Translations under genes and position numbers: made by a program
Notes under the pieces: model-generated
The model's database searches: none
Seen by the model: the letters and a program-made list of their open reading frames with translations, nothing else
Told to the model about the DNA's origin: nothing
Source of the DNA: an uncultured Verrucomicrobiae bacterium
Lineage (GTDB): Bacteria; Chlamydiota; Chlamydiia; Chlamydiales; Rhabdochlamydiaceae
Direction: 5' to 3'
Length of the DNA: 64,000 nt
Assembly (NCBI GenBank): GCA_963718565.1
Contig: OY970364.1
Span: forward strand, 1,856,001-1,920,000
Shown: positions 24,140 to 62,581 of the stretch, one piece after another
Numbering within the stretch: position 1 is the stretch's first letter
How the letters are laid out: the number at the start of each line of letters is the position of its first letter

Positions 24140-25165
24140 ATGTTCCAACTTCTGATGGTTTTTTTAATCCCCTGTTGTTTATTTGCAGGGAAATTTGACG
24201 AGCATTTGGAGAAAGCCGGAGGCGATTTGCACTATGTGCGTACTCCAGAAGATCGCAAGCTGCTGGGTTTTTTTTCAGCATTGTTCGACATGGCAGAAAA
24301 ACGTGAAAAACCTGTAGGAGCCATTCCTAAAACTCTCCATTTTATTTGGCTAGGGCCTAAACCTTTTCCGAGCGATTCGGTGAAAAAGGTCAAAGGATGG
24401 ATAAATAGGCATCCCGGGTGGAAGTTCAAATTCTGGACAGATCTTGGCCAAGCAGCCCCCGATGATCGGATGGAGATTTATCCCTTTGAAATGTTTCCTC
24501 TTCAAGAGCTGAAAAATAGTTACTATCGTAGCGATAATTTTGGGGAGCGATCGGAAATTTTACGCTATGCGGTTTTGCTCAATGAAGGCGGGATCTACAT
24601 CGATCATGATGTGTACTGTCTAAAATCGATCGAGTCATTGCAGGAAAATCATGACTTCTTCTGTGGCTTAGATCCTTTAGGGCCGACAGTGTTGAGTTCT
24701 TCCGTTAATCCTTCTCCTCATCTGCTGGCAGCAGCTGCACAGCATCCCATCCTAAAGGCATCGAAGAAATGGTTGCTCAATGAATGGGACTTGCTAGAAA
24801 TGCAATATACGGGGTCAGATTCGTCCGCAGTCTATAATCGCGTCCAACATCGTGGTTTCAGGGCGCTTGGGGTTGGAATCAAAGAAGCTCACAACCGTTC
24901 TGGCCGGAAAGATGCCGTTTTCCCTCCGGATTTTTTTAGCCTTGCTGAAAGTAAGCATGCGATCTTTGCTGTCCATCAGCATAAAGGGACATGGTACAAG
25001 CAGGAAATCATTGTGAATTCCAAAATCGTCAGGCTGTTCAAAGAGATTAGAGAGGAATTTTCGCGGACATATGCCCTTGCCCTGTCTTTGACATTTGTGA
25101 ATGTCGGTCTATGTGCATTCTTAGTTTTCCCCTTCTTAATAAAGAAAAAAAAGAGAACAAAATGA
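24140..25165 (+). CDS. DXD-motif (GT32/OCH1-like) glycosyltransferase with signal peptide and C-terminal TM anchor
   Basis: IPKTLHFIWLG, SEILRY, EGGIYIDHD; hydrophobic ends and a KKKKRTK tail. Confidence 0.82.
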   Translation: MFQLLMVFLIPCCLFAGKFDEHLEKAGGDLHYVRTPEDRKLLGFFSALFDMAEKREKPVGAIPKTLHFIWLGPKPFPSDSVKKVKGWINRHPGWKFKFWTDLGQAAPDDRMEIYPFEMFPLQELKNSYYRSDNFGERSEILRYAVLLNEGGIYIDHDVYCLKSIESLQENHDFFCGLDPLGPTVLSSSVNPSPHLLAAAAQHPILKASKKWLLNEWDLLEMQYTGSDSSAVYNRVQHRGFRALGVGIKEAHNRSGRKDAVFPPDFFSLAESKHAIFAVHQHKGTWYKQEIIVNSKIVRLFKEIREEFSRTYALALSLTFVNVGLCAFLVFPFLIKKKKRTK

Positions 25166-26415
25166 AGAGGGAATTGCAAAACTCCTCGCCGCATAAAATC
25201 GCGCTTTTGGTACCTGTCGCCTTGGCGGCGGCTCTCCTGCTTATCCAAGTATGCTTTCGCCGCCGCCAACCGAACCCGCTGTGCGGGTTCTGGCAACAGG
25301 TGCCAAAATCATCGATTTTCTCCTGGCGAGGAGTTTTGCAATTCCCTCTGAAAGCTTTTCGCAGACAGACTCTGGCAACTCTTTTCATCTTGTTGTCCAC
25401 TGTGAAATTGATGGCAAATGAAAGCGCATTCGACGTCAATGATTTTGTCGGCATGATGGGCAGATCGACTGCGCATTGGAAGAATATCACAGAAGCTCGG
25501 GATGTGAATACTTTGGAGCGGGCGGAAGTTCTCTATCGAAAAAATAAGATGGCCCAGTTCACGCAAAAAGGTCGACTTAAGATTCCTGCGGTTGTTCATT
25601 TTATTTGGCTTGGGCCCCGTCCTTTTCCTCCAGAGTCTGTCGAGAATGTCCGCACATGGATTGCGAATAATCCTAGTTGGACAATTAAATTTTGGACGGA
25701 CCGCGATCGCGATTTGCCTTGCGAAGGGATGGAAAAGGTATTGGTCAAAGATTTTACCTTCTTAAAATTAGGCAACTGCTTTGAGCAGTCGCAAAATTGG
25801 GGAGAGAAATCAGACTTGTTGCGTTATGAAATTCTATTTCAGGAAGGAGGGATTTATGTCGATCATGATGCCAACTGCCTGCGCTCATTTGATGGCTTGA
25901 ACCGCGGCTATGATTTCTTCTGCGGCCTTGAAGCCCCTCATGAGCCCTTCGTAGGCAGAAGCATCACTTGTGGAAATGGAGTCATTGGTTCGCGCTCGCA
26001 TCACCCGACAGTGGACAAAGCGATTCATCTGATCGCAGAGCGTTGGGAGTCTTTAGGAGAAAAATATCGTGGCAAAGATGAGTATTCTAAAATCGAAGTG
26101 GTGATGCAGCGCACTTACATCGCTTTGACAGATGCGATTGCCGAGACGATCGATTGTCAAGGAAATGTGGATATCGTGTTCCCGGCGGCTTATTTTTTTG
26201 CCAAAGGGGAAATTCCTGCATTGTATTCCCAGCATTTTTATGCCAGCGCCTGGAACGATTATAAAATGAGAAAAACAAACGTGGATCGTTCTAAAGAACG
26301 AGAACTCGGTAAGATCAGAAGAAAAAATCGAAACCTCACCTTTTTGCTCATAGGCCTTGTCACCTTTAACGGGCTGATCTTAGGCATTAGTTTAATAAAG
26401 AGGAGGAGGCCATGA
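25162..26415 (+). CDS. DXD-motif glycosyltransferase carrying an in-frame 62-codon palindromic insertion after MK
   Basis: IPAVVHFIWLG, SDLLRY, EGGIYVDHD; ATG at 25162 overlaps the upstream stop (ATGA). Confidence 0.82.
   Translation: MKRELQNSSPHKIALLVPVALAAALLLIQVCFRRRQPNPLCGFWQQVPKSSIFSWRGVLQFPLKAFRRQTLATLFILLSTVKLMANESAFDVNDFVGMMGRSTAHWKNITEARDVNTLERAEVLYRKNKMAQFTQKGRLKIPAVVHFIWLGPRPFPPESVENVRTWIANNPSWTIKFWTDRDRDLPCEGMEKVLVKDFTFLKLGNCFEQSQNWGEKSDLLRYEILFQEGGIYVDHDANCLRSFDGLNRGYDFFCGLEAPHEPFVGRSITCGNGVIGSRSHHPTVDKAIHLIAERWESLGEKYRGKDEYSKIEVVMQRTYIALTDAIAETIDCQGNVDIVFPAAYFFAKGEIPALYSQHFYASAWNDYKMRKTNVDRSKERELGKIRRKNRNLTFLLIGLVTFNGLILGISLIKRRRP
25167..25348. mobile_element. 182-bp MITE-like palindromic element (GAGGG family, longest copy)
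   Basis: Perfect 24-bp terminal inverted repeats GAGGGAATTGCAAAACTCCTCGCC; 4-bp TGAA duplication at 25163-25166 and 25349-25352. Confidence 0.92.
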
Positions 26416-27509
26416 AAAAATATATACCGAAGGTGATTCAAAAAGTTGGAATGTGGATTCTTATCCTTCTTTTTTCTTTGAGTTGTGGAGCTTGCCAAAA
26501 GAAAAACGAGATACAGCGTCCATCTGCGGATGACTTTGAAAGCTTGACCGGTAAAAATCTTCCGACTTGGAAGTATATTCAGACAAAAGAAGATTTTGAG
26601 CATTTGCATCTCTTTACTCGCATGTACGAATTAAAAAAAGGGTTGATCGATGCTGCGGAAGATGTGTCGCGTGTTCCTAAGATTGTTCATTTCGTTTGGA
26701 TCGGGCCGCGGCCTTTTCCCAGAGAATCTGTTGAGAATGTGCGTACGTGGATGGCTAAACATCCTGAGTGGACGTTTAATTTTTGGACCGATCGAGAGCG
26801 CCCTCTTCCTTCTCCTGGTATGAAACTGCGCTTGATCAAGGACTTGCCTTTTTTAAAATTGCGCGACTGTTTTGCGAAATCCGACAATTGTGGAGAAAAG
26901 TCCGATTTACTGAGATGCGAGATTCTCTATCAAGAGGGGGGCATCTATGTCGATCATGATGTCAAATGCTTTAAAGCATTCGACCCCTTGAACAAAGCTT
27001 ATGATTTTTATTGCGGGATCGACATGCCGTATACGAGCAGTCTTCCTTCGTGTATTTTCACGACAAATAACTTGATCGGCGTCAGACCGGAACATCCCAT
27101 TCTCTTGCGTTGCATGGAGATGCTTGCCGAGAAGTGGGAGCAAATTGAGCAGGATTATCCAGGCTCCGACCGCGATGCGATGCTCAATAGAGTGCTGCAT
27201 CGCACATTTTGGTTATTTGGCGAGGCAGTCAAACAAGTCGCCAATCAAGACGGCAATCGTGATATTGTCTTTCCCGCATACTATTTCGATGCGCCCAAAG
27301 ACGAACTGGCAATTTTTGCCCGTCATCAATACGCTGGGGCGTGGCATGAGAGTGAATCAGCATTTGAAAAAATGGTCAGGCAAAGGCTGATGCTGCTCAG
27401 CAAAAAAAGCAATAAGATTTTGCTATTCTTTGGAATAATGTCAGTCGTTAACCTTTTGGGTTTAATTCTCCTTTTTTTCAGTTTTAAGAGGCAATTTGCA
27501 AAAAATTGA
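26412..27509 (+). CDS. DXD-motif glycosyltransferase, possibly a lipoprotein, with C-terminal TM anchor
   Basis: VPKIVHFVWIG, SDLLRC, EGGIYVDHD; LSLSCGAC near the N-terminus. Confidence 0.82.
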   Translation: MKKYIPKVIQKVGMWILILLFSLSCGACQKKNEIQRPSADDFESLTGKNLPTWKYIQTKEDFEHLHLFTRMYELKKGLIDAAEDVSRVPKIVHFVWIGPRPFPRESVENVRTWMAKHPEWTFNFWTDRERPLPSPGMKLRLIKDLPFLKLRDCFAKSDNCGEKSDLLRCEILYQEGGIYVDHDVKCFKAFDPLNKAYDFYCGIDMPYTSSLPSCIFTTNNLIGVRPEHPILLRCMEMLAEKWEQIEQDYPGSDRDAMLNRVLHRTFWLFGEAVKQVANQDGNRDIVFPAYYFDAPKDELAIFARHQYAGAWHESESAFEKMVRQRLMLLSKKSNKILLFFGIMSVVNLLGLILLFFSFKRQFAKN

Positions 27510-35978: not shown

Positions 35979-36012
35979 GAGGGAATTGCAAAACTCCTCG
36001 CCGCATAAAATC
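35979..36012. repeat. Solo end of a GAGGG-family element
   Basis: TTTA followed by GAGGGAATTGCAAAACTCCTCGCCGCATAAAATC, identical to the first 34 bp of the 25167 copy. Confidence 0.85.
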
Positions 36013-54950: not shown

Positions 54951-56324
54951 GTGATGATGCGAACTAGGTTTGCAATGTTCTTAACTTATAGAGGGAATTG
55001 CAAAATTCCTCGCCAGCAGAAAATCGATGATTTTGGCACCTGTTGCCAGAACCCGCACAGCGGGTTCGGTTGGCGGCGGCGAAAGCCTACTTGGATAAGT
55101 TGGCTGTGTATATTCTTTGTCATTGTGTTTCATTTTCATGCATATTCAGCCAATATTGAACTGGGTGTCGATGTTTTCTTTAACGAGGGGTTGGTTCACG
55201 AGCTCAAAGGAAAAAGAGTGGGACTTGTCACAAACCATACCGGTGTCAATAGTTCCATGCGTTCGACGATCGACCTGTTTTTAGAGGATGTCCCGGAGGT
55301 TAAGCTCGTCGCGTTGTTTGCTCCGGAACATGGACTTAATGGGCAAGCTTATGCGTTTGAAGAAGTCAGGGAAACCAAAGGACCCGCAGAAATTCCCGTG
55401 TATAGTTTGCATGGCAAAACGCGCCGACCGACCGAGCGCATGTTGCAAGGGATTGATGTCATCGTCTACGATATCCAAGACATTGGCTGCCGTTCTTATA
55501 CCTATACGACAACGCTATGCTACGTGATGGAGGAGGCGGCCAAACGAAGTATTCCTGTTGTTGTTCTTGATCGCCCCAATCCCATCAATGGCCTTACTGT
55601 AGATGGCCCCATGCTGCAAACAAAATGGCGCTCGTATATCGGCTATGTCAACGTCCCCTATTGCCATGGGATGACGATCGGTGAACTTGCATGCTTTTTT
55701 AATGACAAATATCAGATAGGGTGCAAGCTCAAAGTCGTTGGGATGAAAGGTTGGAAGAGATCGATGGCCTTTACGGATACCGGGCTGACGTGGATTCCGA
55801 CAAGTCCCTATATTCCAGAGTCCGATACCCCGCAATTTTATGCTTCGACAGGTTTATTAGGGGAATTGTCCCTTGTCAATATCGGGATTGGTTACACGCT
55901 TCCCTTTAAGGTGGTCGGTGCACCTTGGATAAAAGCTTCTCAACTAGCCGATCAGCTTAACGAGCAAAAATTGCCAGGCGTTCATTTCCTTCCTTTTTAT
56001 TATCGCCCTTTTTATGGAGTGTATAAAGGAAAAGACTGTCAGGGGATCATGATTATTGTGACCGATGCCAAATCCTATCGTCCTGTCAGCACCCAATACA
56101 TGATTTTGGGGATTTTAAAAAATCTCTATCCTAAGCAAGTGCTCGCAAAACTCAATGCTCTAGAGCTTGTGAAGAAAGATTTATTTTGCAAAGCCAACGG
56201 CAACGAAGAGATGTTGACGTTGTTGTACAATGAGAAGTATGTGGCATGGAAGCTGATCCTTTTTCAGAAAGAAGAAAGGGAGCAGTTTCAGCAAGAACGT
56301 AAAAAATATCTTTTATATCCTTAA
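54951..56324 (+). CDS. namZ: Exo-beta-N-acetylmuramidase NamZ family (YbbC/DUF1343); N-terminus contains element-derived sequence
   Basis: RVGLVTNHTG, LFAPEHG, YDIQDIGCRSYTY, VLDRPNP, HGMTIGELA; exact start uncertain (54951-54975). Confidence 0.88.
   Translation: MMMRTRFAMFLTYRGNCKIPRQQKIDDFGTCCQNPHSGFGWRRRKPTWISWLCIFFVIVFHFHAYSANIELGVDVFFNEGLVHELKGKRVGLVTNHTGVNSSMRSTIDLFLEDVPEVKLVALFAPEHGLNGQAYAFEEVRETKGPAEIPVYSLHGKTRRPTERMLQGIDVIVYDIQDIGCRSYTYTTTLCYVMEEAAKRSIPVVVLDRPNPINGLTVDGPMLQTKWRSYIGYVNVPYCHGMTIGELACFFNDKYQIGCKLKVVGMKGWKRSMAFTDTGLTWIPTSPYIPESDTPQFYASTGLLGELSLVNIGIGYTLPFKVVGAPWIKASQLADQLNEQKLPGVHFLPFYYRPFYGVYKGKDCQGIMIIVTDAKSYRPVSTQYMILGILKNLYPKQVLAKLNALELVKKDLFCKANGNEEMLTLLYNEKYVAWKLILFQKEEREQFQQERKKYLLYP
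54991..55099. mobile_element. 109-bp truncated GAGGG-family element inside the namZ reading frame
   Basis: Matches the reverse complement of the 25167 copy from GAGGGAATTGC to TTGGATAAG; preceded by TATA. Confidence 0.9.
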
Positions 56325-60549: not shown

Positions 60550-60619
60550 GAGGGAATTGCAACACTCCTTGCCGCATAAAAGCGCGATTTTATGCGGCGA
60601 GGAGTTTTGCAATTCCCTC
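60550..60619. mobile_element. 70-bp GAGGG-family palindromic element
   Basis: Near-perfect hairpin; TTTA duplicated at 60546-60549 and 60620-60623. Confidence 0.92.
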
Positions 60620-62445: not shown

Positions 62446-62581
62446 GAGGGAATTGCAAAACTCCTCGCCAGCAGAAAATCGATGATTTTGGCACCTGTTG
62501 CCAGAACCCGCATAGCGGGTTCGGTTGGCGGCAGGTGCCAAAAGCGCGATTTTATGCGGCAAGGAGTTTTGCAATTCCCTC
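62446..62581. mobile_element. 136-bp GAGGG-family palindromic element
   Basis: Terminal inverted repeats as in the 25167 copy, opposite orientation; TTTA duplicated at 62442-62445 and 62582-62585. Confidence 0.92.

Follow-up and report, generated by a model that had tools for sequence, protein, structure and literature searches.

A palindromic miniature transposable element in frame at the start of a rhabdochlamydial glycosyltransferase gene, and its relatives within other genes

[quoted passage not shown] The same parts of that review name ERIC, large BOX elements, QMITE1 of Coxiella and cyanobacterial MITEs as further elements whose open frames can fuse to host genes (PMC10969869). Here a 182-bp palindromic element is described that lies in frame at the start of a glycosyltransferase gene, in a stretch of 64,000 nt (from now on referred to as the window; positions 1,856,001 to 1,920,000 of contig OY970364.1, assembly GCA_963718565.1) from an uncultured environmental (soil) chlamydia placed in the Rhabdochlamydiaceae. 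The genome (G000) is a single contig of 2,284,058 bp with a G+C content of 43.6%. With a probability of roughly 0.6 we regard the element as a recent MITE insertion that is translated through from the native ATG and is tolerated as a nearly neutral passenger.

The element at the start of the glycosyltransferase gene

The element (window 25167-25348) has the ends GAGGG...CCCTC and is bordered on either side by a TGAA target duplication. Its terminal inverted repeats (TIRs) are perfect across 24 nt, or across 25 nt with one extra base, the longer arms (25166-25190 and 25325-25349) being 100% complementary and separated by a spacer of 134 nt. Together with the duplication the element adds 182+4 = 186 bp, or 62 codons, which are stop-free in the frame of the glycosyltransferase; both the coordinates and the open frame agree with the first-pass annotation, where a palindromic mobile element inserted in frame had been proposed. 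When the 24-nt repeat was searched for in the window with up to 3 mismatches, 8 matches were found against 0.00 expected from 100 shuffles, so the repeat is not a product of chance.

At the TGAA site two tandem DXD glycosyltransferase genes overlap, the stop of one and the start of the next sharing ATGA. The TGA of the upstream gene (25163-25165) and the ATG of the host gene (25162-25164) are both kept in the left copy of the duplication, while the right copy is read in frame as C-TG AA-A, with a CTG now at the position held by the ATG before the insertion. The public gene call for the same genome also places the protein start at ATG 25162. The insert peptide reads as given in the first-pass annotation. 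Within the insert a transmembrane-like stretch had been noted from the translation alone, and it was recovered as 20 hydrophobic residues with a best 19-residue Kyte-Doolittle window of 2.67. The segment that follows the insert (25351-25416) shows, by eye, a basic start, a hydrophobic core and small residues, and the same layout is seen in 10 orthologues. At the RNA level the element is predicted to fold with -117.9 kcal/mol compared to -56.6 ± 4.3 in shuffles (z -14.4), and its 26-bp hairpin stem starts about 5 nt past the A of ATG 25162, directly after AUGA. An Rfam scan of 25000-25500 gave no match at E values up to 1.

Among the 18 other genomes of the genus, 12 have an orthologue of the gene; N-termini were read at 11 of these loci and the twelfth (G003) was judged from a 330-aa open frame only. 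At 10 of the 11 loci a short hydrophobic N-terminus adjoins a conserved motif with no additional 60 residues in between, and the residues right after the element are matched by those of the closest orthologue, that of G013 (77% identity). The insert was found at none of the 11 loci, which bears out the proposal that the segment was added to this gene and is not a shared part of the protein. Given the perfect TIRs, the missing insert in the orthologues and the fact that the copy departs at just 3 positions from a consensus built on the 23 copies with a length of exactly 182 bp, the insertion is recent and lineage-specific.

The element family and its copies within genes

A BLAST search with the element returned 127 loci in the genome, and a search for the repeat revealed 217 ends genome-wide, which form 71 pairs and leave 75 solo ends; 26 additional near-full-length copies show 94–98% identity. 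The 4-bp duplication is perfect in 51 of the 71 pairs and has one mismatch in 14 others, and the duplicated sites are 82% A+T compared to 56% for the genome. The 70 paired copies of at most 400 bp range between 47 and 335 bp, with size classes of 182 bp (23 copies, and four more of 181–187 bp), 257, 258 and 259 bp (8, 7 and 4 copies), ~71 bp, ~56 bp and others, and the element is without a long open reading frame (ORF) of its own. The family is thus a real MITE family, with TIRs, a fixed 4-bp duplication, small size and many copies but no transposase gene.

These ends are absent from all nine insertion-sequence families of the genome, and no two ends in this genome share more than 400 nt of inward sequence. 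Long end pairs were considered as an autonomous partner and rejected, the sequences they enclose being housekeeping genes. An autonomous partner may exist outside this genome. One pair of inverted ends, 1634 bp apart and without a duplication, surrounds a gene for a 478-aa solute symporter (G000:C1:96519-98152) and could represent either chance neighbours or a composite unit.

Since the lengths with the duplication included (182+4, 257+4 and 137+4) are multiples of three, an insertion in an open frame leaves the frame of the host intact. The element is stop-free in three of the six frames: frame +1, the one in register with the glycosyltransferase, is hydrophobic, while frames +2 and -2 are basic and hydrophilic (Kyte-Doolittle values of 0.21 and 0.38). 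Frame -1 holds an internal stop and has the same in-frame TTG near the right end as frame +1.

When the 70 paired elements of at most 400 bp were surveyed, solo ends being set aside, 16 were located inside genes in an open frame, in unrelated hosts as identified by Pfam (Table 1). A genome search with the TIR and a count of in-frame insertions into coding sequences had been suggested for this element, and its outcome is the 217 ends and these 16 copies among the 70 paired elements. Ten of the 16 are situated within the first 1–12 codons, upstream of an N-terminal hydrophobic segment, and the other six are in cytoplasmic-type proteins, all of them in hydrophilic frames. When the elements were removed in silico, a single intragenic closed-frame copy emerged, which sits in a deaminase-like ORF 12 codons ahead of its stop; for all other copies in closed frames, an intact native ATG follows downstream. 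Empty sites were identified in relatives for all 10 signal-peptide hosts and, of the six cytoplasmic ones, for the four that were compared with orthologues, namely MutY, the pseudouridine synthase, the ABC ATPase and the chorismate-binding enzyme, among the latter in the sister species G004 with 84–91% protein identity. The penicillin-binding-protein case is ambiguous, as a TTG 16 codons past the element could be the native start.

The distribution of frames departs from chance in several ways. Within genes 16 of 17 copies are open where one half is expected (binomial p = 1.4e-4), and in the 257–259-bp class 7 of the 8 copies of 257 bp are intragenic but none (0 of 11) of those measuring 258 or 259 bp (p = 1.6e-4). 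The hydrophobic frame +1 is used in 8 of the 10 signal-peptide hosts but in 0 of the 6 cytoplasmic hosts (Fisher p = 0.0035, and p = 0.010 after dropping two ambiguous cases, the carboxypeptidase and TsaB), and the 8 out of 10 also exceed the one third expected (p = 0.0034). At N-terminal sites frames +1 and -1 occur 8:0 (p = 0.004). There is, in other words, a genome-wide filter for open, compatible frames, and since such frames prevail among the intragenic copies the pattern argues that ribosomes read through the elements of the family and that selection filters the insertions.

Related elements of 68–82% identity are held by 12 of the genus's 18 other genomes, compared to 0 of the 12 genomes searched from the order's other families. 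Their ends read GAGCC... compared to GAGGG... here, while the length of 182 bp is maintained. The copy numbers are low in the relatives, hence the burst of the element is specific to this genome. The exact repeat pattern gave 0 matches when one genome per species was searched, the own genome excluded, and the +1 peptide matched 7 longer proteins in the protein database, all from the contig of this genome, with no independent occurrence. A few concordant cases come from relatives: elements in hydrophilic frames lie within KsgA of G001 and, in G003, within a dehydrogenase-E1-like gene and the loop of a permease. In G004 an element lies in the hydrophobic frame in a gluconolactonase-like gene and in a frame with a hydrophobic stretch in a lipoprotein gene. 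Hydrophilic frames were also found in two exported proteins of G001.

Translation of the insert and its alternatives

The course of events is most likely as follows. A non-autonomous DNA transposon, a MITE, has recently landed in the TGAA between two glycosyltransferase genes, and because element and duplication add up to 186 bp without a stop, the host gene has retained its reading frame, its ATG and the overlap of this ATG with the upstream stop. Ribosomes would most likely start at the native ATG, aided by termination-reinitiation from the upstream gene, where a ribosome terminating at the overlapping TGA would already open the base of the stem and could restart. Read-through would place 62 additional residues between Met-Lys and the native signal peptide, and the resulting extension is predicted to begin with a tail of 12 residues (net +2), continue as a hydrophobic helix of 20 residues and end in a 38-residue loop that has eight basic but no acidic residues (net +8). 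According to the positive-inside rule basic loops stay cytoplasmic, so that the 38-residue loop should remain in the cytoplasm, and the native hydrophobic segment would presumably still span the membrane. Should this native segment be a cleavable signal peptide, the whole extension would be removed with it and the mature enzyme would be unchanged. Such a course would account for the preponderance of signal-peptide N-regions among the intragenic sites. Some sixteen such in-frame insertions, this copy being one, would then owe their survival to a family that is frame-neutral and has three of its six frames open. In our reading of the sequence, the insert is a tolerated passenger in a portion of the signal peptide that is probably cut off, and not a new functional leader. 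The further suggestion of the first-pass annotation, that the insert may change the export or topology of the protein, we consider less likely than neutral tolerance.

Several observations weigh against read-through and tolerance. The strong hairpin by the ATG could block initiation or attract RNase III, and given the youth of the insertion a dead gene could not be told apart from a live one. The frame tests are based on small samples from one genome, the hosts were sorted into exported and cytoplasmic by eye and post hoc (using N-terminal sequences, orthologues and Pfam), and two of the signal-peptide insertions are in hydrophilic frames. When the +1 copies were compared with the consensus, 4 synonymous and 16 non-synonymous differences were counted in intragenic copies against 29 and 43 in intergenic ones (p = 0.12), and as there is no synonymous excess in the intragenic copies there is no sign that the peptide itself matters; only the openness of the frame and its broad chemistry, and not the peptide sequence, appear to be of importance.

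The same hairpin could instead silence the gene, by blocking initiation or through a cut by RNase III, in which case the middle glycosyltransferase would be a very young pseudogene and its open frame a mere by-product of a length divisible by three and a stop-free frame. We regard this as possible, though not probable. It agrees with a -117.9 kcal/mol structure that starts directly after AUGA, with a peptide sequence that is without constraint, with two flanking paralogues that might buffer the loss of the middle gene, and with an insertion so recent that decay would not yet show. However, if in-frame and frame-breaking insertions were equally harmful, open and closed copies should be about equally common, while 16:1 was observed, and essential-looking single-copy enzymes (MutY, the oligopeptide ABC ATPase, TsaB and the pseudouridine synthase) hold the element in frame; the ATGA overlap, where the terminating ribosome has already opened the base of the stem, would in addition allow a restart. 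A start of translation past most or all of the element, at an in-frame TTG or at an ATG in the native N-terminus, with the 62 residues not being made, is unlikely. The right repeat ...GAGGAGTTTTGCAA... does carry a TTG in frame +1, four codons before the right end and after GAGGAG, and a start there would give a near-native signal peptide, but a spacing of just 2 nt separates the purine-rich motif from the TTG, the motif is enclosed in the 26-bp stem, and a later ATG would lose the hydrophobic core. Frame -1 offers the same TTG yet is absent at N-terminal sites (8:0), which argues against a restart inside the element.

An assembly artefact, with a repeat copy misplaced in a metagenome-assembled genome, would be conceivable given that the assembly is metagenomic and repeat-rich and that short contigs of public runs break at the element. 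Against it stand the exact 4-bp duplication and the exact frame-preserving geometry of 186 bp, the same geometry at 51 sites, and a 201-nt contig (run X4, which may be the source sample) that covers 25338-25519, including the right junction, without a mismatch, and we therefore hold it to be very improbable. In contigs of four soil DNA runs none was found to bridge the empty site, a result that is uninformative on polymorphism.

A bolder interpretation than tolerated read-through, which must be called doubtful, is that the family acts as a frame-sorted cassette, one frame giving a membrane helix and two giving basic soluble peptides. It would be read by ribosomes wherever inserted, selection would sort the copies by the location of the host protein, and the targeting or anchoring of envelope proteins would be altered. 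If this were true, the cassette would add a second membrane segment before the signal peptide in secreted and envelope proteins, the rate or mode of targeting or the anchoring would be altered, in the glycosyltransferase among others, and transposition would be a direct source of variation in the chlamydial envelope and secretome.

Gene cluster, related elements and known systems

The host gene is the middle one of three tandem paralogues, all of which match PF04488 (DXD sugar-binding region) above the cut-off (44.7–48.8 bits compared to 23), the middle gene with E 2.3e-11 and 44.7 bits. The catalytic domain of TcdA/TcdB (PF12919) was tried for the middle gene and rejected at 19.5 bits (cut-off 23.6), with a match of 38 residues covering profile positions 3–39 of 382. 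The domain common to the three genes is that of GT32-type DXD glycosyltransferases; the proteins here differ in carrying a signal-peptide-like segment at the N-terminus and a membrane anchor at the C-terminus. The gene order of the three paralogues (24140-27509) is conserved across the genus, and each shows a signal-peptide-like N-terminus and a C-terminal hydrophobic anchor followed by a basic tail, a layout unusual for nucleotide-sugar enzymes. The features of the window are collected in Table 1 together with the intragenic copies of the genome.

Table 1. Features of the window (window positions) and the 16 genes of the genome that hold a family element in an open frame
Feature	Position	Strand	Element size	Frame	Remark
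Middle DXD glycosyltransferase including insert, 417 aa, PF04488	25162..26415	+			open frame from ATG 25162
Upstream paralogous glycosyltransferase, 341 aa, PF04488	24140..25165	+			stop overlaps next start
Downstream paralogous glycosyltransferase, 365 aa, PF04488	26412..27509	+			again ATGA overlap
Left TGAA duplication copy	25163..25166	.			contains upstream TGA stop and TG of host ATG
MITE copy	25167..25348	.	182 bp		consensus comparison
Left TIR, 24 nt	25167..25190	+			repeat search
20-residue hydrophobic stretch, then RRR	25198..25257	+		+1	codons 13–32 of extended ORF
Right TIR, perfect complement of left	25325..25348	-			repeat search
Right TGAA duplication copy	25349..25352	.			sequence
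Rest of native N-terminal signal-peptide-like segment	25351..25416	+			aligns with orthologue N-termini
Solo family end	35979..36012	+			
Partial family copy	54991..55099	.	109 bp		
Short copy, two ends	60550..60619	.	70 bp		target duplication TTTA
Internally deleted copy	62446..62581	.	136 bp		target duplication TTTA
Solute-binding protein (SBP_bac_3)			182 bp	+1	signal-peptide host
FKBP-domain protein			182 bp	+1	signal-peptide host
S13 D-Ala-D-Ala carboxypeptidase			182 bp	+1	signal-peptide host
Window glycosyltransferase	25162..26415		182 bp	+1	signal-peptide host
Legionella_OMP-type outer membrane protein			182 bp	+1	signal-peptide host
SMP-30/gluconolactonase-like protein			257 bp	+1	signal-peptide host
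No-Pfam protein	genome 1182912		257 bp	+1	signal-peptide host
Family-92 glycosyltransferase			257 bp	+1	signal-peptide host
MORN-repeat lipoprotein			182 bp	-2	signal-peptide host
No-Pfam protein	genome 487130		257 bp	+2	signal-peptide host
MutY	residue 273			+2	cytoplasmic host
Pseudouridine synthase	near N-terminus			-2	cytoplasmic host
Chorismate-binding enzyme	before catalytic domain			-2	cytoplasmic host
Oligopeptide ABC ATPase	after residue 17			+2	cytoplasmic host
SET-domain protein	residue 25			+2	cytoplasmic host
TsaB	after codon 4			-2	cytoplasmic host; TTG start

In the orthologue of the middle gene in G001 (L038, G001:C1:802915-806892) a different related element of 249 bp (positions 2515-2763 of the locus) with the duplication TTCA is located about 12 bp past the GTGA stop/start overlap. 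Element and duplication add up to 253 bp, which is not a multiple of three, yet the frame from the overlapping GTG continues into the gene; with the element removed in silico the frame of the gene is left without a start codon where another species has ATG ATG.

In the gluconolactonase-like gene the element is found at one site both in this genome (1018889-1019145) and in the sister species G004 (L133, G004:C130 1421-1603), the former copy being 257 bp with GAGGG-type ends and a perfect TAGG duplication and the latter 182 bp with GAGCC-type ends and a decayed duplication. Both are open in the hydrophobic frame and the gene of two other species is without the element, so that the shared site represents either an old insertion later converted to the local subtype or a target used repeatedly. 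In the gene of the MORN lipoprotein the codons before the element (WRRILQL; G000:C1:1797380-1797405) are like a decayed right end of the family, and in the sister species an element is placed a few codons away in the same signal peptide but in opposite orientation, which suggests nested or replaced insertions. The piece of ~65–75 bp that sets the 257-bp class apart from the 182-bp class (positions 100–166 of the G001 element, L038:2515-2763:-) is a dispersed repeat in relatives, present at many loci in G001, G003 and G013, and the 257-bp class looks like one small element nested in another, with an in-frame insert of 75 bp.

Other end types, for instance at window 2648, 28452 and 59534, agree with the repeat of the element over its first 16–20 nt and then continue as ...CTAACAAAACGGGG, ...CTAACGCGAAAAGG or ...CTCAGGT..., forming a second MITE-like family of 87–563 bp with many solo ends; IS3-type and IS607/TnpB-type copies are situated between some of these ends. 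For a chlamydia of 2.28 Mb the genome is very rich in insertion sequences, with ~22 copies of a 2085-bp element that are 99.6–100% identical, ~16 each of a 1960-bp (TnpB-type) and a 1130-bp element and 12–13 each of four other families.

Signal peptides extended by long N-regions are present in some autotransporters. The extension described here may be an analogous case in that a long N-terminal addition precedes an ordinary signal peptide and is lost on export, but it is a recent transposon insertion with a hydrophobic helix of its own and not a conserved region. Judging by the genome-wide pattern, the N-region of the signal peptide offers insertions a safe harbour, and the sorting of frames, hydrophobic in signal peptides and hydrophilic in cytoplasmic enzymes, amounts to indirect evidence of translated transposon sequence in an uncultured organism. 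With dozens of very young copies of known geometry, three contrasting open frames and empty sites in a sister species, the family forms a clean natural experiment. On the practical side, such elements lengthen N-termini in gene calls and fragment short-read assemblies.

Judged from titles and the opening lines of abstracts, a literature search on MITEs in Rhabdochlamydia or Chlamydiae returned no chlamydial MITE, and a search combining MITE, signal peptide and in-frame insertion returned nothing relevant among the matches listed. Within these limits this is the first coding MITE family that we could find for Chlamydiae. Like the bacterial MITEs with open frames, it is non-autonomous and can fuse to host genes on insertion, but no cognate insertion sequence was found for it in this genome.

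The closest likeness is to the RPEs, in the palindromic structure, the obligate intracellular host and the in-frame position in many unrelated genes, 16 in this case. In contrast to the RPEs the family belongs to another phylum, the Chlamydiae, and has TIRs of 24 nt along with a 4-bp duplication in 51 of 71 copies; its size classes become divisible by three only once the duplication is included, 10 of its 16 intragenic copies are in the N-regions of signal peptides, and its frame tracks the location of the host protein. An independent coding-MITE family had been proposed from the window alone, and of this proposal the many in-frame insertions into genes, patterned as expected from read-through under selection, found support, whereas the independence stands in the sense of another phylum and of MITE ends. 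The family is accordingly best seen as an analogue of the RPEs, without being assigned to them, and set apart by phylum and ends. What is new compared to the known systems is the phylum, the frame neutrality that includes the duplication, the concentration in the N-regions of signal peptides and the sorting of frames by host location. In-frame selfish DNA is best documented in Rickettsia, and its presence as a classical MITE in an unrelated intracellular lineage points to a recurrent outcome and not to a rickettsial oddity.

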